A stretch of 64,000 bases of DNA from contig CAYUSP010000003.1 of NCBI GenBank assembly GCA_964447405.1, positions 691,723-755,722 of the forward strand. The letters are read 5' to 3'. The notes below the pieces were generated by a model that saw only the letters and a list, made by a program, of their open reading frames with translations, made no database searches and was not told the DNA's origin. This document shows positions 23,819 through 48,162 of this stretch, piece after piece (position 1 is the stretch's first letter; every line of letters begins with the position of its first letter). Source of the stretch: an uncultured Nitrospiraceae bacterium. GTDB lineage: Bacteria; Nitrospirota; UBA9217. The translations under genes were made by a program, and so were the position numbers.

Positions 23819-24535
23819 TTACCGTGGAATAAGGATTGTCATTTTATCCAGAATCAGCAGCACGCCCATGATGATCAGGATGATGCCGCTGGTGATCTTG
23901 ACTGCCTTGAAATGTTTTTTTAACACATTGAATGACGAAAGGAAGGCGCTGATGGCGATGGCCGAAAGGATGAATGGTACGCCAAGACCGAGCGAATAAA
24001 ACATGAGCAGTGTCATCCCGCTTCCCAGCGTATCGCTCGTCACGGCAAGAGCAAGGACCGATCCCAGAAAAGGCCCGGTGCATGGCGTCCAACCTGCTCC
24101 GAAGATCATACCGACGACAACCGTACCCAAATAACCTGCGGGCCGCGATTTAAGACTGAGCTTTGCTTCCTGCTGCAAAAATGGGATGTTGACGACATCC
24201 ATCACAAATACACCCATGATAATAACCAGCACTCCTCCCACAATACGAATGACATCGAGGTGCTGCGAAAGTATGCTGCCCGCAAGGCTCGCCGTGGCGC
24301 CGAGGAGCACGAAAATGATCGAGAACCCCGCCACGAATGCCAGTGAATGGAGCAGGGTAATGCTCATGTTCTTCCGGCGCGTCTCCCTGCTGACCAACTC
24401 GTCGTAACTGATCCCGGTTATATAGGAAACGTAGGAGGGGATAAGCGGCAGAATGCAGGGAGAAGCAAAAGAAATAATCCCCATGACGAGTGAGTAAAGC
24501 AGGACATACGGCGTCAAACCATGCGAAAGGTCCAT
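23819..24535 (-). CDS. ccdA: Cytochrome c biogenesis thiol-disulfide transporter CcdA (DsbD-family core)
   Basis: 238 aa with 6 TM segments and a conserved Cys in TM1 (...FASPCILPLIP...) and TM4 (...GAGWTPCTGP...). Confidence 0.85.
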   Translation of the reverse strand: MDLSHGLTPYVLLYSLVMGIISFASPCILPLIPSYVSYITGISYDELVSRETRRKNMSITLLHSLAFVAGFSIIFVLLGATASLAGSILSQHLDVIRIVGGVLVIIMGVFVMDVVNIPFLQQEAKLSLKSRPAGYLGTVVVGMIFGAGWTPCTGPFLGSVLALAVTSDTLGSGMTLLMFYSLGLGVPFILSAIAISAFLSSFNVLKKHFKAVKITSGIILIIMGVLLILDKMTILIPR

Positions 24536-26653: not shown

Positions 26654-27952
26654 TTAGAACGCCATGGTAAGCACGCCCTGGATGTTGGTTGAAGCATCCT
26701 TGCCCAGACCTGCGCCCGGGATAAGATGGCCGACAACCCAGTTCCAGGTCACGCCATCAGCAAGCTTCCAGTTCGCCTTGAGGTCGATTTCGTTTCCGAG
26801 CTCGGAAGTATCTGCACCACCAACTTCCTTCTTGTTCGCGACCTTTTCCGTGGCCTGCAGAATCCAGATATCGCCGCCAATGCTCAGGTTCTTTGTAGCT
26901 GCGAACATGGCGCCTGCATTAAGCGCTGTGGTACCGCAGAAGCCCTGGTTCTTCGCGCCGCATGCACCAGCGACCAAGAATTCATAGACCAGCGTGTAGT
27001 GAACATCCTTGTCAAGGAAGGTGACCATTTGATTGAAGTCAGGTGAGGTCGAATTGCGCTTGACGCCGGAACCGCGGGCTACGGTAAAGTTCACCGTGAG
27101 AGCATCCATCGGCACTTTGCCTTCGATTACGATCTGGTTGCCCTTGAGTTTTGCCGAGGTGGTAGCACCCTTTGCTGTGCCAGACTGCATGTCAAGTTCA
27201 GCCTTGAGATCGATCGGGCCGACTTTGCCGCCAAAATGCAAGCCGACGTTCGTGGCTTTCGTGTCATAACCGGCTGTATTGAATCCAAAGCCATTTCGAC
27301 GGTCATTCGCCTGTAAGATGTTGATACCGGCTGTGGCATCACCAAACTTGTTGGTGGCAACGAGCACATAGGCATCAATGTCATCGCTGGCATTGATCGC
27401 TCCCTCGGAGATCTTCACATCCACTACGCCAAGATGGAGTCCGCCGAAATCAGCATAGGCTACTAAGGCATCGGAACCATACTTGTTGGAACGAATGAAC
27501 CAAGCATTGCTGAGCTGAAGGAACATATGACCAGCCTTGAAAAAGACTGGCGTTCCCGGGATCGGGGTCAGGAGCCATGCTTCGCGAAGCTTGATGCGGC
27601 TTGCGGGACCAGTGGTGGCAACGTAATTGCCAGCTGTATTCGTGCCACCGGTCACTACCGTCGTGGTTCCCTGCTCTGCTTCATATCTGCCGAATGTGTC
27701 CCAGTCGTTCTCGATCGTCACTTTAGCCTTGGCATCGCCTGCCTTGGCATTAATGTCAATGCGAACTCTCTCCTGCGTGCTAACGTCTCTTGTGGCGCTC
27801 GTGTCAGCTGTTGCATCACTAAAATCCAGGTTGTTGAAATTCTTGCTTCTCAAAAATACCTGCCCGCCTATGGTAACATCCGCGGCCAGGGCCACCGTAC
27901 TGATCATAACCATCGCCAGTGCCAACAGTACTACGAAATACTTCTTCATCAT
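26654..27952 (-). CDS. Outer-membrane beta-barrel protein (porin-like)
   Basis: 432 aa with signal peptide MMKKYFVVLLALAMVMISTVALA. The body is Gly/Thr/Asn-rich with alternating strands and a C-terminal ...LTMAF ending in Phe. The upstream leader is long and AT-rich. Confidence 0.7.
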   Translation of the reverse strand: MMKKYFVVLLALAMVMISTVALAADVTIGGQVFLRSKNFNNLDFSDATADTSATRDVSTQERVRIDINAKAGDAKAKVTIENDWDTFGRYEAEQGTTTVVTGGTNTAGNYVATTGPASRIKLREAWLLTPIPGTPVFFKAGHMFLQLSNAWFIRSNKYGSDALVAYADFGGLHLGVVDVKISEGAINASDDIDAYVLVATNKFGDATAGINILQANDRRNGFGFNTAGYDTKATNVGLHFGGKVGPIDLKAELDMQSGTAKGATTSAKLKGNQIVIEGKVPMDALTVNFTVARGSGVKRNSTSPDFNQMVTFLDKDVHYTLVYEFLVAGACGAKNQGFCGTTALNAGAMFAATKNLSIGGDIWILQATEKVANKKEVGGADTSELGNEIDLKANWKLADGVTWNWVVGHLIPGAGLGKDASTNIQGVLTMAF

Positions 27953-28665: not shown

Positions 28666-29313
28666 TTGCCATCACAAATAACTCATGCTATAACGCTCGT
28701 CATGTCAACCTCTCCCTCCTTAGAAGAACAGATAACGATGGCGGGCCTCACATACGGACGCCGCCACGACATCGCATACCGCTCCGGCATGGTGCTCCAG
28801 GTATGCGGTGCTGCCTTGCTCGCTGTGCTGTATCCGCTCGACAGCCCGTTCTATACCATAGGCATCATGCTGTTCGAAGCCGGCGTACTGCTTTCTGCAA
28901 TCTATCTTCTCGTTTGGATGCGCCCGGTCAAGAAGATAATAGTCGGGTCGGTGATCGCAGGGCTCGTTCTTCAAGTAGTCGGTGCCTTCGCGGCCCCGGA
29001 ACAATATGCGGGTCTGGTTCTGCTCTCAGGAATCGGGCTCGTCTGCGCTGGAGCGGCTGGGATGGTCGGCAATGAGGCGTTTTGCTTTGGATACCGTGAA
29101 GGCTGGGTGCTTATGCTGGCTGGATTTCCCGTGATGGTCCTGGCAAATCTGCTGCTCAGAGAGAACCGCATTTTCAATTCGCTGGGTTTCTCCGTTATTT
29201 TTTTACTGCTGCTTTCACTTACAGGCAAGAAGCTAAGGCAGAAATTGCTTTCTTTACCCTCTACAAGCGTTTGCGGGGTGTCGGAGAGGACAGAAGTAAG
29301 AAGTAAGAAGTAA
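28666..29313 (+). CDS. Hypothetical polytopic membrane protein
   Basis: 4-5 predicted TM helices. The start is uncertain (alternatives 28702 or 28738). No family is confidently recognised. Confidence 0.45.
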   Translation: MPSQITHAITLVMSTSPSLEEQITMAGLTYGRRHDIAYRSGMVLQVCGAALLAVLYPLDSPFYTIGIMLFEAGVLLSAIYLLVWMRPVKKIIVGSVIAGLVLQVVGAFAAPEQYAGLVLLSGIGLVCAGAAGMVGNEAFCFGYREGWVLMLAGFPVMVLANLLLRENRIFNSLGFSVIFLLLLSLTGKKLRQKLLSLPSTSVCGVSERTEVRSKK

Positions 29314-29736
29314 GAGAACTACCAAATATAATTCGTCCAACATGAAAAAACATAACTTCAGAAATCTAAAAATCTACCAACGAGCCATAGCATTCGCTGT
29401 GGATATTTACCAGATCAGCAGGAGTTTTCCGCAGGATGAAATTTATGGGCTGACAAGTCAGATACGACGGGCCGCAACTTCAATCCCCCTTAATATTGCC
29501 GAAGGCAGTGGCAGCACATCAGGAAAAGAGTTTAGGCGATTTCTTGAAATTGCTTTACGTTCTGATTATGAGGTATTGGCCTGTCTGGAAATATCATTAC
29601 GATTGAATTACTGCAATCATGCGGTTTTTGAAAAACTGACTCAGGAAGCAAACGAAATAGCATCCATGATAGCTGGATTCTCAAAAAGCCTATAATCTTA
29701 CTTCTTACGTCTTATCTCCTTTTTCTTTCTTCTGTC
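29286..29736. mobile_element. Inverted-repeat-bounded element carrying a four-helix-bundle gene
   Basis: The left arm is gaggacagaagtaagaagtaagaagtaagag (29286-29316). The right arm is cttacttcttacgtcttatctcctttttctttcttctgtc (29697-29736), which ends at the stop codon of the sigma54 response-regulator gene. gtaagaagtaag/cttacttcttac is an exact reverse complement. Confidence 0.6.
29342..29695 (+). CDS. Four-helix-bundle protein (the so-called 23S rRNA intervening-sequence protein family)
   Basis: 117 aa. MKKHNFRNLKIYQRAIAFAVDIYQISRSFPQDEIYGLTSQIRRAATSIPLNIAEGSG... is the hallmark of this family. Confidence 0.85.
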   Translation: MKKHNFRNLKIYQRAIAFAVDIYQISRSFPQDEIYGLTSQIRRAATSIPLNIAEGSGSTSGKEFRRFLEIALRSDYEVLACLEISLRLNYCNHAVFEKLTQEANEIASMIAGFSKSL

Positions 29737-31141
29737 ACTTAAAATCTTCCTTTTTCAAACCATACCGCGCCATCTTTTCATGGAAGTTCTTGATATTGAT
29801 CCCCGCATGACCAGCCGCTTTGGTCATGTTTCCGGCATACATTTTGAGAAGCTGGGTAAAATATTCTGTTTCAAACTGCGCAACGACCTCAGTTTTGATC
29901 ATCCGAAAAGGCGGGATATCGCCTCCTCCGGGGAATGACGCGGTGAACTTTCCTGTTCCTCCCGGACGTTTCAAGTCAAGACGGCTGAGGGTGTCGCCCT
30001 TTTCCATGATCACTGCGCGTTCGATAAGATTCTCCAGTTCGCGCACGTTTCCGGGATAGGAATACCGCAGCAACGCAGTGAGCGCATCCGGTGATATAGA
30101 AGTAATCGTTTTCTGGTTTTTTTCGCAATATTTCCTGAGAAAAAATGAGGCTAAAAGCGGGACATCGTCCATCCGGTCCCGCAATGCGGGCAATTTGATC
30201 GGAACAACATTCAGCCGGTAAAAAAGGTCCTCGCGAAACAACCGTTCACCCATAGCGCGATGAAGATCCTTGTGCGTGGCGGCAATGACCCGTACATCGA
30301 CTTTTACGGGATGATTACCTCCCACGCGTTCGAACTCACGCTCCTGCAGTACGCGCAGGAGCTTCATCTGGACCGGCATGGACATTTCCCCGATCTCGTC
30401 GAGGAACAGCGTACCACCATCCGCCATCTCGAATCTACCGATGCGCTGCCGGATCGCACCGGTAAACGATCCCTTCTCGTGTCCAAACAGTTCACTTTCC
30501 AGGAGGGTCTCGGGAAGGGCTGAACAGCTCACAACGACGAATGGGCGGTCCTTTCTTCTGCTGTTATAGTGGATCGACCGGGCTATGAGCTCTTTGCCTG
30601 TGCCGCTCTCTCCGTGGATCAGCACAGTTGCATCGGTCTCGGCCACTGTACGGATGAGCTGAAATATCCCCTGCATGTGCGGATTTCTTCCCAAAAGATT
30701 GCCAAACTGATAACGCTCCTCCACCTCATGCCTGAGATTTTCCACCTCCCGGAAAAGCCTCCTGCGTTCAACAGCATTTTTTACCTGTTGGCTCAGATCC
30801 TCATATTGTATCGGTTTGGTTAAAAAGCTGTAGGCGCCCTCCTTCATTGCCTTGACAGCCATCTCTATCGTCCCGTAAGCGGTCACGACGATCACCGGAA
30901 TGTCAGTCCTGCCCGGCCCCGGGAAGGCTCCCTTGCGAAGCTTCTCGAGCAGGTCCATACCCGTGATCATCGGCATCTGCTGGTCCACGATAATGACATC
31001 GAAATCGCGGCTCTCAAGGCATCTCAATGCCGAAACGCCGTCTTCCGCCGTCTCTACTTCATAGCCTTCCCTTCTGAGGTTGGCAGACATGACCAGAAGG
31101 ATGTCGGGCTCATCGTCGACTATTAAGAGGGAGCCTTTCAT
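29735..31141 (-). CDS. Sigma54-dependent response regulator (REC + AAA+ sigma54-activator + Fis HTH)
   Basis: 468 aa with a phospho-acceptor Asp in ...DFDVIIVDQQMP..., a GAFTGA-like ...GSFTGA..., an ESELFGHEKG Walker B region, and a C-terminal HTH. Confidence 0.9.
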   Translation of the reverse strand: MKGSLLIVDDEPDILLVMSANLRREGYEVETAEDGVSALRCLESRDFDVIIVDQQMPMITGMDLLEKLRKGAFPGPGRTDIPVIVVTAYGTIEMAVKAMKEGAYSFLTKPIQYEDLSQQVKNAVERRRLFREVENLRHEVEERYQFGNLLGRNPHMQGIFQLIRTVAETDATVLIHGESGTGKELIARSIHYNSRRKDRPFVVVSCSALPETLLESELFGHEKGSFTGAIRQRIGRFEMADGGTLFLDEIGEMSMPVQMKLLRVLQEREFERVGGNHPVKVDVRVIAATHKDLHRAMGERLFREDLFYRLNVVPIKLPALRDRMDDVPLLASFFLRKYCEKNQKTITSISPDALTALLRYSYPGNVRELENLIERAVIMEKGDTLSRLDLKRPGGTGKFTASFPGGGDIPPFRMIKTEVVAQFETEYFTQLLKMYAGNMTKAAGHAGINIKNFHEKMARYGLKKEDFK

Positions 31142-32850
31142 AGGGGGGGGGTCTGATTGAGGACCGTGGAATATGGCTTGTCCGAATGTACTGCTTCTCC
31201 ATGTGCTCCGGGTGCACTGCTCTGCATGCCGGAACAGCAGCGTATAGGAAGCCTCACCAGGATCCGGGTGCCGCCGGACGAGGGTTGATCGATGACGATC
31301 TCACCCTCATGGCTCTTCAAGACCCTCTGGACGATGGTCAGGCCAAGCCCCGTACCTCTGACTTTGGTCGTATAAAAGGACTGGAAGACGCGCTCCCGAT
31401 CCTGCTCGGGAATTCCCGGGCCCGAATCCTGGATGCGAATTTCGACTGCCGGCCGATCCATTGCCTGCGCCGTGGAAACCCGCAGCGTCCCACCCCCGGG
31501 CATTGCTTCCGCGGCATTGCGCAGCAGATTGTGCAGCGCCTGTTCTATCTGCAGCTCATCCGCCTGCAAATGCGGAAGCCCCGGATCAAGGTCGCGCACC
31601 AGCTCGATCTTCTGGGTGCGGAGCTGCTCACCAAGAGCATCAAGCGCCTGATCAAGCACGGTATTGACCTGAAGCGTCGTGAGATTCATGCGGATCGGTT
31701 TGGAAACATAGAGGAGGTCGGAGGCCACCTGGTTAACGCGGACAGCCTGCCGTTTGATCAAGCTCGTGAACTTTTGCAGTGTTTCATCGTTTGCATATTC
31801 CGTGGACAGAAAATGCGCCGCTCCAGTGATCGCGTTCAACGGATTTCTCACTTCGTGGGCCACACGGGCGGCCATCTCTCCCAGCTCTGCGAGGCGGCGC
31901 GACTGTTCGAGCCGCTCTGCGAGCCGGACCTTTTCGGTCACGTCCTTGATGTATTCGACCACCTGAACGACCCGGTTGCCCCGGTCCAGCAGAGGAAACG
32001 AGCTGATCTCGACGACCCGGTCCTCGGCCACGCCGGCGTTTCGGGGGAGTCTCTTCGTGGTCGATGCCGGCAATCCCGTGCGAAACGTCTCCTCGGCAGG
32101 GCAGTCATTGCAGACCGTGGTCCCGAAGGAGCAGGCTTCATGGCACCGCTCGCCGGGTGTGATGCTCCGGGCGAGCAGCGACGTCATTGACTTATTCGCG
32201 GCGGTTATCCTGAAATCACTGTTAATGACCTGGATGCCGTCCGTGATGCCGTCGAACATGGCCACCAGTCTCTTGCGAGCATCGGAGATCTGGTCCTCCA
32301 TCTCCTTTTTTCGCGTAATATCCTCAAGCATGATCACCACGCCGTTTCCGACGGACCAGGCCATTTTGCCGAGGGGATAAACGCTGTAGCTCATGGTCTT
32401 TCGGGGGCCGTGCTTCGACAGCAGATCATATTCGAGGTCAATGGCGGCACCTGCGGCCCAGACCGCATCGGACAAACGCTCCCATAGTGCTCGGAGCGCA
32501 TGGTCATCGAATCCCATGATCTTGCCTATTTCCGCCATATGCTTGCCAACCACCATCACGCGCGGCAAGCCGAATAATTTTTCCGCCGCGGCATTAAAGA
32601 TCCTGATGCCGCCTTCTCCGTCAAGCGAGATGATGCCGGTGGTCACACTGTCGAGCAGGCCTCCCATGTGCAGAAGGAGTTCGTTGTTCCAGCCGGGTGC
32701 AGCCGGGATCGCGGCTCCGGAACGCGCGGGTTGACCGGCCCCACCTCCGAAAGGATCGTTGCCAAGAGGTGTCTTTTTTTCGGTTCGCATGAATGGAAAT
32801 CGCGATTTACTGGTGGGAAGTTTCCTTGTCATGTTTATCCGTCTTGTCAC
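31138..32850 (-). CDS. Cytoplasmic PAS-PAS sensor histidine kinase
   Basis: HisKA H-box ...AARVAHEVRNPLNAI... and HATPase G-boxes are present. The N-terminal start is uncertain because the ORF overlaps the upstream HD-GYP gene. Its stop overlaps the response-regulator start (ATGA). Confidence 0.8.
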   Translation of the reverse strand: MTRRINMTRKLPTSKSRFPFMRTEKKTPLGNDPFGGGAGQPARSGAAIPAAPGWNNELLLHMGGLLDSVTTGIISLDGEGGIRIFNAAAEKLFGLPRVMVVGKHMAEIGKIMGFDDHALRALWERLSDAVWAAGAAIDLEYDLLSKHGPRKTMSYSVYPLGKMAWSVGNGVVIMLEDITRKKEMEDQISDARKRLVAMFDGITDGIQVINSDFRITAANKSMTSLLARSITPGERCHEACSFGTTVCNDCPAEETFRTGLPASTTKRLPRNAGVAEDRVVEISSFPLLDRGNRVVQVVEYIKDVTEKVRLAERLEQSRRLAELGEMAARVAHEVRNPLNAITGAAHFLSTEYANDETLQKFTSLIKRQAVRVNQVASDLLYVSKPIRMNLTTLQVNTVLDQALDALGEQLRTQKIELVRDLDPGLPHLQADELQIEQALHNLLRNAAEAMPGGGTLRVSTAQAMDRPAVEIRIQDSGPGIPEQDRERVFQSFYTTKVRGTGLGLTIVQRVLKSHEGEIVIDQPSSGGTRILVRLPIRCCSGMQSSAPGAHGEAVHSDKPYSTVLNQTPPL

Positions 32851-34339
32851 TGCCCGTCGAGTACTGATGGTAGGAATGCATGCCCAGCTTCAGCAGCCCC
32901 TTCTCGATCAGTTTCCTCGCGGAGTCGGCAACAACAGGATCGAACTGGCCGCCCGACTCCCGCTTGAGTTCAACGAACACTTCCTGGCTCGAAATAGTGC
33001 CGCGATAAGGCCGTTCGGAGATCATGGCATCGATCGTATCGGCAACATTGAGGATCCTCGCAGCGAGGGCGATCGCCTCCCCGGCAAGGCCGCGCGGGTA
33101 CCCCTTCCCGTCATACCGCTCATGATGCTGATAGATCGCATTGATGATAAACGCTGAGAAGCCTATCGGCTCAAGGATCCTGATCCCGTGTGCCGGGTGA
33201 TCCTTCATGATGTCGAATTCTTCCCTGCTGAGCCGTTCCGGTTTGCTGATGATCAATTCGCTGATCCCGATCTTGCCCACATCATGCAGGATGGCGGCGA
33301 TATGGACCTCTTCCAGCTGCGAGGGGCTCATGCCGATGTCCCGCGCGATGGCCACTGCGTATTTCGCAACATTAGTGGAGTGCCACCGCGTGTAGGGATC
33401 CTTCGCTTCCACAGCAGCCACAAGCGCCTGCACGGTGCGGAAATAATTCTCCCGCAGGTTCTCATAAAGAGCGGCGTTTTCCATGGCGGTCACCACCTGG
33501 CTGGACAGGATGAGGACGATCTGGAGGTCGCTCTCCGTGAACGATGGCCCGGAGAGCTTGCTGACGTTCAGTACGCCGAACAGTTTGTTCTTTCCCATGA
33601 GCGGGACCGACATGGAGGAGGCCGGCATGTTCTCCCGGTTAAGGGCGCTCATGACGTCCGCGTCAGGATGCTTGCCGGCCGAGATGATCAGCGGCTTCCG
33701 GTGCTTGAGTACCAGGCCGGACACTCCCTCTCCTTCATGGCGCCTGGCCTTGAGCGCGAGGTCCGTGGAAAGACCGTGGGATGCCCGGATCAGCAGCGTG
33801 CCGCTCGCCTCATCGATCAGCATGAGCGAAACACGGTCCACATGGAATTCCTGCACCAGCACCTCGGTGATGATCTTGAAGAGATGGGCGAGATCGATCT
33901 CGGTGACCAGAAGCTTGCTGATCTCGAACAGGGGAATGAGCGCCTTCAGCCTGATGTTCTCCTTTTGAAGCCGGCTGCGCTTGACTGCGCGGTCGACCGC
34001 TCCCAGCAATTCTTCCTGGGTGAATGGCTTGAGCACGAAACCATCCACGCCGCGCATCAGGGACTCGATCGCCGTGTCAAGGGTGCCATGGCCGGTGATG
34101 AAGATGGTCACGATGTCCAGCTTCATGACCTTGACCCGCTCGAACAGCTCGAGTCCGTCAATGCCCGGCATTCTGATGTCGGTAATCAGCAGGTCCGTAG
34201 CCGCATTCGCAAGCTCATCCAGCGCCGCAGCACCGTTCGATACCGTGGAAACCTGGTACCCCTCGGCCTCAAGGATCAGTTTACAAAGATCTCTGATTGC
34301 ATCTTCATCGTCAACGACAAGGATTTTCTCTCCTGCCAT
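32807..34339 (-). CDS. Response regulator with REC + GAF + HD-GYP (c-di-GMP phosphodiesterase) domains
   Basis: The start is taken at MAGEKILVVDDE. ...HHERYDGKGYPRG... is the HD-GYP signature. The REC Asp is in ...LLITDIRMPG.... Confidence 0.85.
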   Translation of the reverse strand: MAGEKILVVDDEDAIRDLCKLILEAEGYQVSTVSNGAAALDELANAATDLLITDIRMPGIDGLELFERVKVMKLDIVTIFITGHGTLDTAIESLMRGVDGFVLKPFTQEELLGAVDRAVKRSRLQKENIRLKALIPLFEISKLLVTEIDLAHLFKIITEVLVQEFHVDRVSLMLIDEASGTLLIRASHGLSTDLALKARRHEGEGVSGLVLKHRKPLIISAGKHPDADVMSALNRENMPASSMSVPLMGKNKLFGVLNVSKLSGPSFTESDLQIVLILSSQVVTAMENAALYENLRENYFRTVQALVAAVEAKDPYTRWHSTNVAKYAVAIARDIGMSPSQLEEVHIAAILHDVGKIGISELIISKPERLSREEFDIMKDHPAHGIRILEPIGFSAFIINAIYQHHERYDGKGYPRGLAGEAIALAARILNVADTIDAMISERPYRGTISSQEVFVELKRESGGQFDPVVADSARKLIEKGLLKLGMHSYHQYSTGSDKTDKHDKETSHQ

Positions 34340-34502
34340 GCAATAACTCCTGTCCAATAATCCATTGAGTCTATCGAGTCGGGCGGGTCCATGAAGTCAC
34401 TGACACCCTTGACGTCTTAATTGCATGGCATCATGCCCTGCGCTCCTGCCTCGGACTCCCGGGTATTGCCGCTCTCTTACACAACGATCTCGAGGAACTC
34501 TC

Positions 34503-35942
34503 CTACACCGGCAGAATCACCCGAAAAGTGGAACCCTCGCCAACCTTGCTTTCAACTTCAAGCCTGCCGCCGTGATTCTGAACGATCATATAGCTGATGG
34601 AGAGCCCGAGACCGGTCCCGTCTCCATCGGCACGCGTCATGAAAAAAGGATCGAAAATCCTGTCAAGCTGCTCTTCGGGGATGCCGGTGCCTGTATCGAT
34701 GAACTCCACGGTGATATGCTCCTTCCCGGTAAAGTCCGCTGACAGCCGGCTCGTAATCAGCAGGGACCCTCCCTGCGGCATGGCGACAAATGCGTTGCTG
34801 ATGAGATTCACAAATACCTGTTTCATTTCGTCGCTGTCCATCGCCACAAGCGGCAGCCCGGCGGGACAGCTGGTGGTGATCTCTACGTTGCTGATCCGAG
34901 CCTGACCCTTGATCAGCGAAATGGTGTCCTGCACGACGCCGCAGAGGTCGGTTTTGACAAGCTGCGGAGGTTTCCGCCGGGAGAAGTCAAGCAGGCTCTT
35001 CAGAATCTCCCGGGCGCGCAGTGTTTCACGTTCTATGGTCTTTAAGTACGCTTTTTTATCTTCGGGTATGTCGTCCGCCTTCAGCAGCAGCCCGGTATAG
35101 CCCAGCACGCCGGTCAGGGGATTGTTGACTTCATAGGCGATATTAGTAGCCATCTCGCCAATCGCAGCCAGTTTTGCGCTTTGCACCAGCTGCCGCTGTG
35201 AGCGGTGAAGGTTTTGGGTCATCGCATTGAAGGCTTCGCCAAGTTCCTTGAATTCGCTTCCCTGGTCATCGCTGATCTCCACGCGCTGCTGCAAGTCGCC
35301 CCGTGCTATGAGTCGGATCGCAACGAGCAGTTTGCTGAGGCGACGTTCCAGACTATCCGCAAGGTACCATGCAATGATCACCGCAAGAAAGAATCCGAGC
35401 AAGAGGGTGAAATACAGGACGGTCCTGATCTCACGGATGGTGGTAAGGGTATCCTGGGTCTTTTGCTGCAGCCGCACATTTGCGGTAAAGGCCATACCCT
35501 GCGTCATGGTAATGAGTTCCTGCCCCAGTTCATGGGCACGTCGCTCGAACGAGGCGATTCGGGCGGGATTCGCGGACGCCGTTACCAGCCGGCTGATGGC
35601 TGCCTTGTAATCGCCGGCCATATCATGCATGCCCAGCAGACCCTGGGCAAGCTCTGGAGCATGATGACAGCCGAGACAGGAGTCCATAACGTTGTCAAGT
35701 TCCTGGACCTGTGCGATCAGCACGTCCACATCGCCGCCCCTCCGGGTCCTGTTCATATAGATATGGGATTGTACCTGCTGCAGATGGATGATAAGGCTTT
35801 CCCGCAGAATCTCGACCTGATGCAGCTGGATCAGTTTGTCCATGCGCTGCGTCGTCTTGGTGATATAGATCGCGGCGATCACGCTCCCGGTCAGGAAGAT
35901 CGCGATCAGCATGCCAAAGCCAATAAGGATTCTTTTTTTCAT
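34503..35942 (-). CDS. Sensor histidine kinase with a periplasmic domain carrying a c-type heme-binding CXXCH motif, plus HAMP, HisKA and HATPase
   Basis: TM1 is at residues 5-27 and TM2 at about 175-195. CLGCHH sits at residues about 89-94 in the periplasmic segment. H-box ...MATNIAYEVNNPLTGV.... Confidence 0.85.
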   Translation of the reverse strand: MKKRILIGFGMLIAIFLTGSVIAAIYITKTTQRMDKLIQLHQVEILRESLIIHLQQVQSHIYMNRTRRGGDVDVLIAQVQELDNVMDSCLGCHHAPELAQGLLGMHDMAGDYKAAISRLVTASANPARIASFERRAHELGQELITMTQGMAFTANVRLQQKTQDTLTTIREIRTVLYFTLLLGFFLAVIIAWYLADSLERRLSKLLVAIRLIARGDLQQRVEISDDQGSEFKELGEAFNAMTQNLHRSQRQLVQSAKLAAIGEMATNIAYEVNNPLTGVLGYTGLLLKADDIPEDKKAYLKTIERETLRAREILKSLLDFSRRKPPQLVKTDLCGVVQDTISLIKGQARISNVEITTSCPAGLPLVAMDSDEMKQVFVNLISNAFVAMPQGGSLLITSRLSADFTGKEHITVEFIDTGTGIPEEQLDRIFDPFFMTRADGDGTGLGLSISYMIVQNHGGRLEVESKVGEGSTFRVILPV

Positions 35943-35955
35943 GGTATCATGCCGC

Positions 35956-36861
35956 TCATTCGTTCCGATAGTGATATGTTTTCAGATTGATGCCGACTTG
36001 CGATGTGATCTTGTAGAGATATTCAAAGTCCTTGTCGCTCGTCTCGATGAATCCGCGGGCACCGAATCGGCGAAGCGCGTCCCGCCCTTCTTCGTTCTTC
36101 TCCATCTCGACAAGCACCTTGACGAGCGCCTTTTTAATATCAGGATCGAGGTCACTGCGGACCGCCAAACAGTTCTGGGGTACAACGCCCGAGGCCCCAA
36201 TGATCATGAGCTCCTTCTCGATCCGGGGATTCTCCGACATCAACTGGTCGTAGATGGTATTCTTCGCGGCTCCTATGTCCGCTTCCTTGTTCAGCACCGC
36301 CAAAATCGCGGCATCATGGCTGCCGGCGAAAAAGGTCTCCCCCAGATAGGAATGAGGGTCAACAATGCCTTTCTCCCGGAAATACGCGAGCGGAAAGATA
36401 TATCCGGCGGTTGTGGCTCGCTCCACGAAAACAAAACGCTTCCCCTTCATGGAGGACTCACTGCGAATACCGCTGTCCTTGCGGACAAAGATGTACCCGT
36501 GATAAGTGGAAGTCCCGTCCATATTGACCGGCCGCGCGAGCGGTTCCACACCCAGCTGGCTGTGAGCCAGGCCATAGGTGAAACTGCCAAAAAACGCGCC
36601 GTCCATTTTTTCCGCAACAAACCGCTCAATAATGTTTCCGTAGCGGCTCAGACTGGTGAAGTTGACCGTCATGCCTATCCGGTCGGACAGATATTTTCGC
36701 AGGACCATGTAGCGTTCCCGCTGCCGAAATACATTCTGCTCGGGAATCAGCCCGATGAGAAGCTCCTGCTGCCCCAGCGTTTTCTTCTGTTCCGGGGGCG
36801 CTTTTTTATTCTCGCATGCCCCGAACGCGAGGGACACCGCTACCAGGAGGATTGTTGTCAT
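35956..36861 (-). CDS. PhnD/SsuA-like periplasmic substrate-binding lipoprotein
   Basis: The start is taken at MTTILLVAVSLAFGAC, which contains a lipobox. It has an ABC phosphonate-binding-like fold and is sandwiched between two sensor-kinase genes. Confidence 0.65.
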   Translation of the reverse strand: MTTILLVAVSLAFGACENKKAPPEQKKTLGQQELLIGLIPEQNVFRQRERYMVLRKYLSDRIGMTVNFTSLSRYGNIIERFVAEKMDGAFFGSFTYGLAHSQLGVEPLARPVNMDGTSTYHGYIFVRKDSGIRSESSMKGKRFVFVERATTAGYIFPLAYFREKGIVDPHSYLGETFFAGSHDAAILAVLNKEADIGAAKNTIYDQLMSENPRIEKELMIIGASGVVPQNCLAVRSDLDPDIKKALVKVLVEMEKNEEGRDALRRFGARGFIETSDKDFEYLYKITSQVGINLKTYHYRNE

Positions 36862-36898
36862 GCGTTTATACGGTGCCATAAGTCTCCCCTCGCCGGCC

Positions 36899-38995
36899 TT
36901 ATACCGCCGCCAGCTTATACAGAGGAAGGACCACCCGGAACGTGGTTCCCTGCCCCTGCTCGCTCTGAACCTCGATGCTGCCGCCATGATTTTGCACGAT
37001 GCGATAGCTGATAGAGAGCCCCAGCCCTGTACCGTCTCCTTTCTCCTTGGTGGAGAAGAACGGCTCAAATATTTTATTCTTGTGCTCTGCCGCAATTCCC
37101 ACACCGGAGTCCCGGATAACAACGAAACATTCCTGCTCGGACGCGATATCGACGTTGATCGCGATAACTCCTCCGTGCGGCATGGCCTGGAGCGCATTGT
37201 TCAGGATATTAATGAACACCTGCTTCATTTCATTATGATCCATGTTGACGATCACCGGCGATTCAGGATAGTCCTCCTGAATCCTGACGGACGCCTGCTC
37301 GGCAATACCCTGCAGCAGCGCCACGGTCTCCCGGAGCGGCTGGGTCAGATCCCCCGGCTGCATCCATGACGGCCGCTGACGCGCGAAGTCGAGCAGATTG
37401 CGGATGATCTTGCGCACCCTGAGCGTCTCCTGCTCCATCAGCCCGAGAATCCGCTTCGGCTCATCCGGCAGGTCAAGTGTCTTGATCAAGTGGGTCGTAT
37501 ACCCAAGCACGCTCGTCAGCGGATTGTTGATCTCGTGAGCAACATTCGCCGAGAGCTCGCCGATGGCCACCATCCTCGTGGAATGGAGGAGCTGTTCCTG
37601 AGTGGCATGGAGCTCGCTCATTTTCCCCTTCAGGTCGGAATAGAGAGAGGCATTCTGCAGAGCTGCGGCAGCAAGGCTCGAAAACACGGTGAATAGCCTG
37701 AGATCATGTTTGTCGAAGTTCGTTCCGCCCTTTTTGTTGACTGCGGTGATCAACCCCGTCATAGTATTCGCTGACCACAGCGGGATGGTCATGATGCTCC
37801 TGAAGCCGAGCGATTTCATGGAGGTACTGTCGAGTCTGAAGTCAGCCAGGGCATCGGGAATCAGGAGCGGCGTGCCATAGCTTACCAGCCAGTTGTATAT
37901 GCCCCCCGCCTCGACCGGCATCTCCAGCCCCCGGATAACATGCGATCGGGAGCCGTATACTCCCAGATATTTGAGCATGCGGTCGGACCGGTCAACCACG
38001 GAAATGGCGATCGTATCGGCCCTTACGAGGTCCTCCGCTCTTGCAGCGATCTTGACCAGCAGCGCCTCCTGGTCAAGGCTTTCCATAAGGTCAAGGCCGG
38101 CGGTATGCAGCAGAAAGAGGTCCCGGTTCCCGCGAGATAGACTGGTATCGCGGGTCCGGAGCGTCAGCGCCATCTGGTTGAACGTGTGGCCGAGTTTGCT
38201 GATCTCATCAGATCCCTTGACAGGGAAAGGAGTATCCCAATCCTGCTGGCTCAACCGGTCGGCTGCCTTGCTGAGCTGAAGGATGGGCCGCGTAATGCTG
38301 ATCGCGATGATCTGGCTGAATGCCAAGCCGACCAGCAGGATCCCGATCAGCGCAACCGCGGATTTTGTTATAAATCCCGAGAATTTCTGCTCAAACCGTT
38401 GACTGGAGATGCCCGCCCGGACATACCCCACTCGGTCGGCTCCCGACATGACCGGAAGCGTAAGATCATACACGCCGTCTGCCTTGATGCGGAACACGGG
38501 TTCCGTGATGCCGCCGTCGGAATCGCAGTGAAGCGTGGTATCCTCGCGGTCCTGCAGGTTGCTGCCGGGCCTTGTATAAAAGGAGGCGCCGCTACTTAAA
38601 TATACCTCCGCGGCCGTACTGGCGATGAGCATTTTACATGCATGATTGTACACCATCAGATACCGCAGGGAATTGCCGGAATGGGACTCATCATCGGCCG
38701 CAAAAGGGGGGGCTATCTTCCGATAAATCTCGAGCAGGTTCCCTGTGGTAATATCATCAGCGGTAAGCGCCGCTATTTCTCGGGCCACATACAAAGCCCT
38801 GTCCCTGATCTCGGCATCCAGGGTCCTTTTCGCCTCCCGAAAATAGAACGCACCCACCAGCGAGGCAACCAGGATAAGAGCTACTGTCATAAAAAAAGAC
38901 ACTCTGCATCCGATGCTGCCCCACCACCAGAAGAGAGCCCTGCGCAATCTATCCGATATAACTGAGTTTTCCCCGATTGAATGCGTCTTGGCCAT
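36899..38995 (-). CDS. Sensor histidine kinase (periplasmic sensor + HAMP + GAF + HisKA + HATPase)
   Basis: 698 aa with 2 TM segments, H-box ...SANVAHEINNPLTSV..., and G-boxes ...GDGTGLGLSISY.... Confidence 0.85.
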   Translation of the reverse strand: MAKTHSIGENSVISDRLRRALFWWWGSIGCRVSFFMTVALILVASLVGAFYFREAKRTLDAEIRDRALYVAREIAALTADDITTGNLLEIYRKIAPPFAADDESHSGNSLRYLMVYNHACKMLIASTAAEVYLSSGASFYTRPGSNLQDREDTTLHCDSDGGITEPVFRIKADGVYDLTLPVMSGADRVGYVRAGISSQRFEQKFSGFITKSAVALIGILLVGLAFSQIIAISITRPILQLSKAADRLSQQDWDTPFPVKGSDEISKLGHTFNQMALTLRTRDTSLSRGNRDLFLLHTAGLDLMESLDQEALLVKIAARAEDLVRADTIAISVVDRSDRMLKYLGVYGSRSHVIRGLEMPVEAGGIYNWLVSYGTPLLIPDALADFRLDSTSMKSLGFRSIMTIPLWSANTMTGLITAVNKKGGTNFDKHDLRLFTVFSSLAAAALQNASLYSDLKGKMSELHATQEQLLHSTRMVAIGELSANVAHEINNPLTSVLGYTTHLIKTLDLPDEPKRILGLMEQETLRVRKIIRNLLDFARQRPSWMQPGDLTQPLRETVALLQGIAEQASVRIQEDYPESPVIVNMDHNEMKQVFINILNNALQAMPHGGVIAINVDIASEQECFVVIRDSGVGIAAEHKNKIFEPFFSTKEKGDGTGLGLSISYRIVQNHGGSIEVQSEQGQGTTFRVVLPLYKLAAV

Positions 38996-43124: not shown

Positions 43125-45518
<2,394 letters not shown>

Positions 45519-46782: not shown

Positions 46783-47631
46783 CTATTGCAAAGTCCGCAG
46801 ATAGGAGATCACCGCCGCCAGATCAGCGGGTGTCAGCTTGCTGGTGGCATTTGTGACGACCTCTTCCATGGCCTTGTTGGCCACGTCGCCGTCCGGCAGT
46901 ATTCCGGTCTTCAAATACTTCGCCAGATCCTGATCGCTCCATTTTTTCAGCCGTGATGACGTCAGGTCAGGAACCTTCTTGCCGTCCGGGCCAATACCGC
47001 CTTTGAGATAGCTCTTCTTCTTGGGAGCACCAGCCAGGTTGCGAGGCGTATGACATTCGCCGCAATGCCCCACCGCCTGGACCAGATAGGCCCCGCGGTC
47101 GACAGATCCCGAACGCACGTGATCCGGAACGAACGGCCCGGGCGTGAAGAACAGCCACTGCCAGCCCCGGAGAGGGAAACGCATCCCGAAGAGCGGCCCG
47201 AGGTCATGCGGCCGGCTTGCGAGCTTGTCCGGTTTGAGTGAGCGCAGATAGGACCACAGGTCCTTCAGGTCGCTGTCACTGATCCCCGTGAATGAAGGAT
47301 ACGGGAATGCCGGGAAGTAGATCGCTCCATCGGGACGGACGCCATGGCGCATGGAACGGATGAAGTCGGATTCGCTCCAGCGACCGATTCCCCTATCGTT
47401 GTCCGGAGTGATATTCGGTCCGAAGAACGTGCCAAAGGGGGTCTTGAGCGCGCGTCCGCCTGCATAGGGTATAGCGCCTTCCCGGTCCTCGGTGTGGCAT
47501 CCCGCGCAATTGGCAATGCTTGCCAGATAGGCGCCCCGCTTCACATCCTCAACCGTTCCCGCCAGGCCATTCGATCCGGTCAGCAGCAGAACGAACAATC
47601 CGATAGCGACTGTCTGTTTCCTGTTTCCCAT
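46783..47631 (-). CDS. Diheme c-type cytochrome (two CXXCH)
   Basis: The start is taken at MGNRKQTV. It has a signal peptide and the heme motifs CAGCH and CGECH. Confidence 0.75.
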   Translation of the reverse strand: MGNRKQTVAIGLFVLLLTGSNGLAGTVEDVKRGAYLASIANCAGCHTEDREGAIPYAGGRALKTPFGTFFGPNITPDNDRGIGRWSESDFIRSMRHGVRPDGAIYFPAFPYPSFTGISDSDLKDLWSYLRSLKPDKLASRPHDLGPLFGMRFPLRGWQWLFFTPGPFVPDHVRSGSVDRGAYLVQAVGHCGECHTPRNLAGAPKKKSYLKGGIGPDGKKVPDLTSSRLKKWSDQDLAKYLKTGILPDGDVANKAMEEVVTNATSKLTPADLAAVISYLRTLQ

Positions 47632-47700: not shown

Positions 47701-48162
47701 CTACTGTTTCTTTTCACGGAAATTGTCGTGGCACCCGCCGCAGGTCTTGCCGAGTGCGCCGATAGCACCCTTTGTGGCGGCCTCGTCCTTACCTTTGGAT
47801 GCGGCGACCAGCTTGGCCACGGCTGCCTGCGTCTCATCCGTTGCCGCCTTAAACTTCGCCGTGTCGGAAAAGACCGCGGGGAGCGAGGCGGATTTTTCCT
47901 TTGCCGTGGCGGCATCAAAGCCGTCCCAGGGCATCTTGGCAAGCACTTCCAGGTACCCGGCATTGCGCGCGACGGTCTCCGCGTTGAAGGGGGCTTCGCC
48001 TTTCGCCATTGCGACAAGCGGGCCAAAATACTTCCCCTGCAGCGTCATGGCTGCCTGACGCTGCTTGACAAGCACCTCGGGTTTCATCTGTGAGAACGCC
48101 GTGACCGCAAGACCAGCAAACACCGCCATTGTTACGACCGAAACGAGCACCATCTTCTTCAT
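47701..48162 (-). CDS. Cytochrome c' (class II c-type cytochrome)
   Basis: 153 aa with a signal peptide, a four-helix-bundle-like sequence, and a single C-terminal heme site ...GKTCGGCHDNFR. Confidence 0.8.
   Translation of the reverse strand: MKKMVLVSVVTMAVFAGLAVTAFSQMKPEVLVKQRQAAMTLQGKYFGPLVAMAKGEAPFNAETVARNAGYLEVLAKMPWDGFDAATAKEKSASLPAVFSDTAKFKAATDETQAAVAKLVAASKGKDEAATKGAIGALGKTCGGCHDNFREKKQ

Follow-up and report, generated by a model that had tools for sequence, protein, structure and literature searches.

A CxxCHH receptor domain and its PhnD-like binding protein in a probable signalling operon of Nitrospirota

What does the cluster of six signalling genes at positions 29735-38995 of this DNA stretch sense, and by which route does the signal leave it? 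The stretch, 64,000 nucleotides from the genome of an uncultured Nitrospiraceae bacterium (assembly GCA_964447405.1, contig CAYUSP010000003.1, positions 691,723 to 755,722 of the forward strand), was analysed as a whole and is called the window below. An earlier note, made from the letters of the DNA, had taken the cluster for a signalling island with a heme-c sensor histidine kinase. The gene in question encodes HK3, a transmembrane protein whose periplasmic domain carries the motif CxxCHH; upstream of it lie the genes for a PhnD-like solute-binding lipoprotein and for a sister kinase, HK1. We hold with moderate confidence that the binding protein and HK3, a receptor with Tyr in place of the phospho-acceptor His, modulate HK1 or an HD-GYP regulator within a vertically inherited operon; in that picture the heme, the docking of the binding protein, the class of its ligand and the direction of control are what we infer, and the genes present, the predicted topology and fold, the invariant motif, the conserved gene pair, the replacement of His by Tyr and the paralogy of HK1 and HK3 are what the analysis shows. 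The features concerned are listed here in transcription order (TM, transmembrane helix; AF2, AlphaFold2).

36899..38995, minus strand: HK1, with TM, a periplasmic sCache/PDC-like domain of ~160 aa (about residues 53-210), TM, HAMP, GAF, HisKA (His487) and HATPase domains (Pfam)
35956..36879, minus strand: PhnD/PtxB-family solute-binding lipoprotein of 307 aa (PF12974 at 1.1e-61, TIGR01098), N-terminus ...LAFGAC
34503..35942, minus strand: HK3, the CxxCHH receptor, 479 aa, with TM, a predicted periplasmic four-helix domain, TM, HAMP, HisKA (3.9e-14) and HATPase_c (7.9e-26)
35424..35861, minus strand: periplasmic sensor domain of HK3, residues 28-173 (146 aa), from topology and AF2 fold
35661..35678, minus strand: C89-L-G-C92-H93-H94 of HK3, putative c-type heme attachment site with an extra His, from family-wide motif conservation
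35133..35135, minus strand: TAT codon of HK3 Tyr270, at the phospho-acceptor position of the H-box, letters read directly
32807..34339, minus strand: REC-GAF-HD-GYP response regulator of the cyclic di-GMP (c-di-GMP) phosphodiesterase type (Pfam HD_5, PF13487, 8.4e-37; Response_reg; GAF)
31138..32832, minus strand: cytoplasmic PAS-PAS-HisKA-HATPase kinase, His326 present (Pfam)
29735..31141, minus strand: NtrC-type sigma54-dependent regulator with REC, AAA+ with GSFTGA, and HTH_8 (Pfam Sigma54_activat, 1.3e-73)

All six genes run on the minus strand, HK1 being the first in transcription order, and they encode the domains that the earlier note had assigned to them. Its grouping of these genes is upheld as well: orthologous loci come from 28 species-representative genomes, nearly all labelled as Nitrospirota metagenome-assembled genomes (MAGs), and the same arrangement recurs in them, hence it is not due to chance. 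The HK1 and PhnD-like genes are separated by 19 nt, the PhnD-like gene and HK3 by 13 nt, and HK3 and the response regulator gene by 163 nt; then two overlaps follow, of which that between the PAS kinase and NtrC genes measures 4 nt. The 163-nt spacer (34340-34502) is peculiar to this genome and is not conserved, ranging from 17 to 197 nt across the orthologs, with 17-27 nt in many of them; no terminator-like site was found in it, and there was no Rfam match either in the spacer or in the window. Because of the tight gaps and overlaps, the short spacer in many orthologs and the lack of a terminator-like site, the six genes are likely to form a single operon. A promoter and terminator scan of the window gave counts no higher than those of shuffled sequence. 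As for the gene boundaries, the PhnD-like gene starts at 36879, a longer open reading frame (ORF; 37197..35956) overstating it, and the 698-aa start of HK1 is supported by a conserved GCRVSFF upstream of M36.

The motif CLGCHH occupies residues 89-94 of HK3, between hydrophobic segments at about residues 5-27 and 174-196. The MKKR at the N-terminus and the HAMP domain after the second segment place the motif, by prediction, in the periplasm, in agreement with the earlier note. When 1.84 billion representatives were searched with a profile, 308 proteins with this domain came up, 228 of them at E<=1e-10, in ~300 clusters at 50% identity; the family matches always begin at residue 1 and span ~197 residues. 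CxxCHH is invariant in all 145 representatives that are untruncated before position 89, almost always at residue 89, and its two x positions vary freely across the family. Other conserved residues of the domain are H41 (95%), E44, R47, L50, Q58, Y112, S117, T121, G140 and M150 (81%). A HAMP domain comes next in 76 of 77 full-length members, and the outputs that follow it in these 77 are HisKA/HATPase (52), GGDEF (10) and EAL (7), and also PAS and REC. Among the HK3 orthologs, the periplasmic domain and the kinase core are conserved to the same degree (69-77% identity). In addition, metagenomes were scanned with a degenerate DNA pattern that fixes 12 conserved, motif-containing receptor positions and was validated on the window. 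The scan gave at least 120 loci, and all counts for metagenome loci, here and below, are among the matches listed. In 118 of these 120 there is a start codon precisely 39 codons ahead of L40.

The AF2 model of the domain (119 sequences) has a mean predicted local distance difference test score (pLDDT) of 91.3, with helices at residues 2-63, 69-90, 96-121 and 126-204, and the domain is thus predicted to be a periplasmic up-down four-helix bundle between two TM helices. Its best Foldseek neighbour is the four-helix-bundle sensor Adeh_2942 (4K0D; TM-score 0.82), and PcaY, Tar and NarQ were also found; the E-values are all 8.6e-3 or higher and the best neighbours are heme-free. The list also holds LytS-N (5XSJ) and QseE (9M08, with the lipoprotein QseG), two helical sensors on which accessory proteins dock. 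The known heme-sensor and four-helix-bundle families to which the earlier note had looked do not take the domain in: no Pfam or NCBIfam model matches it, PF11845 included. The domain alone has no Pfam match at E<=10, no Pfam model covers the N-terminal domain in the 77 full-length members, the only NCBIfam match is one at E=0.1 to a cytochrome c-type protein, and sequence searches of the PDB gave no meaningful match. In the literature we found no description of the CxxCHH four-helix family or of its pairing with a PhnD-fold protein. It apparently defines a receptor family undescribed in the literature, Pfam, NCBIfam and PDB sequences. Beyond Nitrospirota, its taxonomy is represented by a few source names, namely Desulfobacterales and 'Proteobacteria' MAGs.

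The best reading of the motif, in which we have good confidence, is that a c-type heme is attached at CxxCHH, because the CXXCH is predicted to be exported, a cytochrome c' and a diheme cytochrome c are encoded in the window, and the invariance of the motif equals the level that defines Cache_heme. An exported CXXCH is the recognition signal of cytochrome c maturation systems and, to our knowledge, the only requirement for covalent heme attachment. CcdA is encoded within the window too and, taken with the cytochrome c' and the diheme cytochrome c, suggests that the host has a cytochrome c maturation system; no CcsBA or Ccm genes were seen within the 64-kb window. CXXCH invariance has been used to define the Cache_heme family, members of which were shown to bind heme c (PMC12889525). 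In the predicted bundle, CxxCHH would lie at the C-terminus of the short helix 2, level with H41 of helix 1 and M150 of helix 4, and H41, E44, Q55 and Q58 follow the spacing of core positions (heptad phase). The heme would then be held by C89 and C92, with H93 as the proximal ligand and H41 or M150 as the candidate distal ligand, and such a domain may sense redox state or a gas.

The alternative that survives best, although we regard it as unlikely, is that CxxCHH is not a heme site but a periplasmic metal site (Zn, Cu, Ni or Fe) or a redox-active disulfide switch, possibly in contact with the binding protein or its ligand. The invariance of the His after the second Cys in 145 of 145 representatives, while the xx residues vary, is hard on this alternative, as are the export of a motif that maturation systems recognise, hosts rich in c-type cytochromes, and the conservation of the core-facing H41 and M150 level with the end of helix 2. 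Moreover, the other known extracytoplasmic CXXCH sensor family binds heme c (PMC12889525). Nevertheless, two points weigh against heme. H94 (35661-35663) is as invariant as the CXXCH itself, beyond what the CXXCH requires, and ordinary heme c attachment does not explain it; and the geometry of H93, H41 and M150 is drawn from helix lengths and heptad phase. A non-heme site would also fit a bundle that AF2 packs well with no cofactor, and a domain whose similarity to cytochromes ends with the motif.

If a c-type heme is what the receptor holds, how would it pass its state on? The earlier note had taken the CxxCHH protein for a canonical histidine kinase, but it is unable to pass phosphate to the HD-GYP and NtrC regulators in the ordinary way. 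The H-box sequence of HK3 is IA-Y270-EVNNPL, and residues 250-330 are entirely devoid of His. With Tyr at the phospho-acceptor position, HK3, judged from its sequence, is not a working histidine kinase in the window lineage and is unable to autophosphorylate on His. Tyr stands at this position in 27 of the 28 orthologs (locus L008 is truncated), the exception with His being locus L006, where the His has either come back or been kept from the ancestor. Among the orthologs, the ExxN, N, G1 and G2 motifs are retained. The His is present in other kinases of the family, 53 of them from the metagenome loci and 37 from the representatives, and in the metagenome loci a REC-GAF-HD-GYP gene follows only Tyr-variant receptors.

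Could HK3 still be a normal heme-c sensor kinase, autophosphorylating on Tyr270 or another site and directly phosphorylating the HD-GYP regulator, the NtrC regulator or both? The intact ATP-binding motifs N, G1 and G2 would allow it, the REC-GAF-HD-GYP gene follows HK3 in all 28 loci, and the relatives in the family are true kinases with adjacent regulators. DivL, a Tyr variant, was also first reported to autophosphorylate on Tyr in vitro. However, the whole DHp (dimerization and histidine phosphotransfer) domain of HK3 lacks His, the Tyr is kept in 27 of 28 orthologs, and a His-containing paralogous kinase is always encoded alongside. We know of no transfer from phospho-Tyr to Asp in two-component systems. 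Later work found DivL to be without kinase activity (PMC4211667). On balance we consider such a normal kinase improbable, and a pseudokinase that works through another protein remains our preferred reading of HK3.

That other protein is probably HK1, which appears to be a bona fide sensor histidine kinase with an sCache-like input domain. Its H-box, ANVAH487EINNPL, is kept in 23 of 23 full-length orthologs. HK1 and HK3 are 47.7% identical in the kinase core (49% in DHp), the PAS kinase being ~30% identical to each of them, and HK1 falls in the same kinase clade as the true kinases of the CxxCHH family. The periplasmic domain of HK1 is its fastest-evolving part, with 36-59% identity among orthologs. 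It has a weak sCache_3_2 match (5.8e-4), and its AF2 model is alpha/beta but of low confidence (pLDDT 66, from 6 sequences), with Foldseek matches to WalK, KinD, DctB and DcuS.

The second partner of HK3 is the binding protein. The earlier note had proposed that the PhnD-like protein acts as a ligand-presenting co-sensor for either kinase; the co-sensor idea is now strongly supported, with HK3 as the partner. Of the 88 metagenome loci with at least 900 nt upstream, 76 have a PhnD-like ORF of the same orientation that ends at most 400 nt upstream of the receptor. After removal of redundancy the adjacency holds in 85 of 95, 69 of 78 and 11 of 12 clusters at 90, 70 and 50% identity, respectively. 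Any PhnD match at all was found in 92 of the 120 loci, each one adjacent to the receptor. In 35 of 78 loci the stop of the binding-protein gene overlaps the receptor start (-4 or -1 nt). Stop and start also overlap in locus L031, which holds a distant family member (38% identity), where a PF12974 gene precedes the receptor and an NtrC-type regulator and multiheme cytochromes then follow. The paired binding proteins all have signal peptides, and ~40% have lipoboxes. Among the neighbours of the metagenome loci there is no recurrent ABC permease or ATPase, and the window holds no ABC transporter partner and neither PhnC nor PhnE. Since the gene pair is conserved family-wide, including loci with no HK1-like gene, there is strong support for the PhnD-like protein being dedicated to the CxxCHH receptor rather than to HK1 or a transporter. 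In 10 loci without the binding protein, receptor residues S117, N125, R128 and D73 are only slightly less conserved. Among the orthologs, any effect of PhnD loss on the conservation of the HK1 and HK3 periplasmic domains is confounded with phylogeny.

Among PDB sequences the PhnD-like protein is closest to PtxB (1.5e-31), with ArrX and AioX at 1e-13 to 1e-15. A comparison with the PtxB pocket (PMC5700983) shows that the oxyanion ligands Y80, Y126, T156, T157 and H188 are kept, that PtxB S126 is replaced by A158, so that the STS motif reads T156-T157-A158, and that the phosphite-capping Tyr is replaced by N236. Across the binding-protein subfamily the pocket is well conserved (E47 100%, Y80 95%, T156 100%, H188 97% and N236 80%). 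The only Cys residues are C22 of the lipobox and the non-conserved C237. Three known roles were considered for this protein and rejected. A phosphite-type pocket like that of PtxB does not fit, as the Tyr that makes the P-H...pi contact is N236 here, Asn in 80% of the subfamily, and the STS motif is altered, although H188 is kept. Transport of phosphonate or phosphite does not fit the lack of PhnC/PhnE in the window together with the same Tyr-to-Asn replacement. An arsenite sensor of the AioX type does not fit the missing Cys ligand and the closer kinship to PtxB. That the protein serves HK1, or is a phosphonate/phosphite uptake protein lying here by chance, is very improbable: its gene does sit between HK1 and HK3, and HK1 has an sCache-like domain as has been described for AioS, the partner of the PF12974 protein AioX (PMC8050422), but the family has loci without an HK1-like gene in which the gene of the binding protein still adjoins that of the CxxCHH receptor, the window has no uptake genes, the phosphite cap and the AioX-type Cys are missing, and the periplasmic domain of HK1 evolves fast.

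In other genomes, the pair of binding protein and CxxCHH receptor mostly has different company. A REC-sigma54 regulator lies downstream of the receptor in 29 of the 48 metagenome loci with enough sequence, and also in loci L030-L032. ORFs with at least three CXXCH motifs occur near the receptor in 26 of the 120 loci, and one neighbouring cytochrome has 20 CXXCH motifs and MtrC/MtrF-like domains. In 9 metagenome loci there is an MtrB/PioB-like porin, and in 13 the PhnD-like gene is preceded by the gene of a further binding protein (PF04392). L055:2125-3144, L117:5386-7383 and L089:2779-5340 are examples of such neighbours, among which are very large multiheme cytochromes. The usual unit thus appears to be a binding protein with a receptor kinase and a sigma54 regulator, and multiheme cytochromes are often encoded next to it. 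The ancestral, widespread form would be a true histidine kinase receptor feeding an adjacent sigma54 regulator, often near multiheme cytochrome and porin genes.

In the Nitrospirota lineage the cluster is vertically inherited. The REC-GAF-HD-GYP gene is directly downstream of HK3 in 28 of 28 orthologous loci, HK1 is found upstream wherever the contig extends far enough, and this trio of HK1, HK3 and REC-GAF-HD-GYP is never lost. On the tree of HK3 orthologs the PhnD gene is ancestral and has been lost at least four times, and the PAS-kinase/NtrC pair has been lost at least three times. Therefore the six genes are not one obligate unit. The PAS kinase and NtrC are present together in ~17 of the 28 loci and absent together in the remainder, and they form a separable pair because their genes overlap and are gained or lost together. 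The downstream flank, with DUF2301, a porin-like outer-membrane protein, FolD, FTCD and CcdA, is conserved in the orthologs, and the porin-like and DUF2301 genes lie directly downstream in at least 13 loci, with or without the NtrC branch.

These data suggest the following course of signalling. The binding protein would capture a small oxyanion-like ligand and dock on the receptor bundle, as in TorT/TorS, XylFII/LytS and AioX/AioS. HK3 would integrate ligand occupancy with the redox or ligation state of the heme and relay the result through its second TM and the HAMP domain. HK1 would act as the phosphodonor to the REC domain of the HD-GYP phosphodiesterase, in whose translation the receiver Asp (LLITDIRMPG), HD (ILHDVGK) and GYP (GKGYPRG) motifs are intact. 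HK3 may tune the step from HK1 to the HD-GYP protein in one of several ways: it may act as a phosphatase that needs no His, it may inhibit or activate HK1 by forming a heterodimer with it, or it may bind the phosphorylated regulator in the manner of DivL. A periplasmic signal would thereby set the hydrolysis of c-di-GMP. There is a precedent for a heme-c receptor without an output of its own: one sCache_heme member, itself lacking an output, signals through an operon-encoded kinase (10.64898/2026.05.25.727664). Meanwhile, sigma54 transcription would receive a separable, optional cytoplasmic input from the PAS kinase and NtrC. In this kinase the second PAS domain contains C230-x3-C-x6-C-x2-C244 (residues 230-244, 32101-32145, CHEACSFGTTVCNDC). 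The four Cys are conserved in all 17 orthologs and the intervening residues are variable, and the domain may be an Fe-S or Zn-binding PAS domain.

Four observations sit less well with this course of events. The losses of the PhnD gene among the Nitrospirota orthologs leave the receptor domain visibly unchanged, and the partner is thus dispensable in the lineage. The H-box of L006 (from 7395), the sole ortholog with His, reads IAHEVNNPL. Of the Tyr variants only DivL is well studied, and it is active neither as a kinase nor as a phosphatase, which makes the phosphatase version of the model uncertain. Finally, searches nearby for the sigma54 -24/-12 consensus gave no convincing promoter or regulatory target.

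Among known systems, one of the closest is AioX/AioS/AioR (with ArrX and ArxX), in which the PF12974 binding protein is the ligand receptor and is read by the kinase (PMC5908839, PMC8050422). The usual unit of our family shares with it an orphan PF12974 protein, a sensor kinase and a sigma54 regulator in the same gene order. However, the sensor domain here is a CxxCHH four-helix bundle and not sCache-like as in AioS, and the binding protein is closer to PtxB than to AioX and ArrX and lacks a thiolate like that of Cys106 in AioX. In the window, moreover, the receptor carries Tyr instead of His and is connected to the HD-GYP protein, while NtrC is paired with the PAS kinase. TorT/TorS and XylFII/LytS resemble the present pair in combining a binding protein with an all-helical periplasmic kinase sensor (PMC8050422), although docking is only proposed here; their binding proteins are of the Peripla_BP_1/4 type and not PF12974, and TorS and LytS have no cofactor motif. 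In the tetrathionate and thiosulfate kinases TtrS and ThsS a PhnD-like module senses a respiratory oxyanion (PMC5408782), but there it is fused into the kinase, whereas here it is a separate protein beside the CxxCHH bundle.

With sCache_heme (DUF3365/Tll0287; GSU0582 and GSU0935; CHH receptors) the CxxCHH family shares a strict extracytoplasmic CXXCH followed by TM, HAMP and modular outputs. The two differ in fold, which is Cache alpha/beta there and a four-helix bundle here, in the motif, which is CxxCHH here, and in that sCache_heme has no obligate binding-protein partner. Membership in Cache_heme (PF11845) was rejected, as there was no Pfam match at E<=10 and none in the 77 members, and the model is all-helical. 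Class II cytochrome c', a periplasmic binder of nitric oxide and carbon monoxide, is likewise a four-helix bundle, and its one CXXCH stands at the C-terminus of a helix, but it comes after helix 4 in cytochrome c' and after helix 2 in our model; homology (PF01322) was rejected, as hhalign against the cytochrome c' of the window gave a probability of 12% over 9 motif columns only.

On the kinase side, DivL of Caulobacter is the nearest parallel. It has Tyr for the phosphorylatable His, keeps the H-box context and the N, G1, F and G2 boxes, and works with another kinase and regulator (PMC4211667). Nevertheless, DivL is cytoplasmic, PAS-based and alphaproteobacterial and its sensor part is non-homologous, whereas HK3 is a transmembrane protein with periplasmic input, and orthology of the two is unlikely.

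A wider interpretation can be put forward tentatively, as one of the less likely possibilities. The CxxCHH proteins may be an unrecognised three-part receptor class in which a PhnD-fold protein presents its ligand, probably a respiratory oxyanion or metal species, to a heme-holding CxxCHH bundle; the bundle would read this chemical together with the redox or gas state of the periplasm, and the module would govern the multiheme cytochrome and porin conduits of anaerobic sediment bacteria. The Nitrospirota receptor would now be a Tyr-for-His pseudokinase gating c-di-GMP breakdown through its sister kinase. Before the Cache_heme family, described in 2026, cofactor-bearing extracytoplasmic sensor domains were considered nearly absent. 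If the proposal is true, the four-helix bundle would be a second, structurally unrelated family of heme-c sensors, and the first tied to a dedicated solute-binding protein. Since the module often lies beside MtrC/OmcA-like cytochromes and MtrB/PioB-like porins, it could explain when uncultured sediment anaerobes build their electron-transfer conduits. In the window lineage, a sensor kinase would have turned into a DivL-like pseudokinase beside an active paralog, and pseudokinase control of c-di-GMP becomes directly testable.

The other genes of the window to which we have referred, together with those bordering the operon, are the following.

23819..24535, minus strand: CcdA/DsbD_TM thiol-reductant exporter for cytochrome c maturation (PF02683, 1.4e-17)
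26654..27952, minus strand: porin-like outer-membrane protein with a signal peptide and a weak Alginate_exp match (context, possible target)
28666-29313: DUF2301 membrane protein, directly downstream of the signalling cluster
29342-29695: 23S rRNA-intervening-sequence protein (PF05635), between the NtrC and DUF2301 genes
43164-45518, plus strand: KatG
46783-47631, minus strand: diheme cytochrome c
47701-48162, minus strand: cytochrome c' (PF01322 at 8e-34)

The earlier note had cited a ccdA gene ~10 kb away in favour of the heme. The gene is indeed present, at 23819-24535, but it loses its value as specific evidence, being part of the conserved housekeeping flank FolD-FTCD-CcdA. The rest of the window is ordinary chromosome, with genes for a type II secretion system, aro genes, SecA and FolD. 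The PF05635 gene occurs in only two of the orthologous loci (L015 and L023) and looks like a recent insertion. KatG, the diheme cytochrome c and the cytochrome c' are encoded ~8-13 kb upstream of the operon, and could be an oxidative or nitrosative stress cluster.

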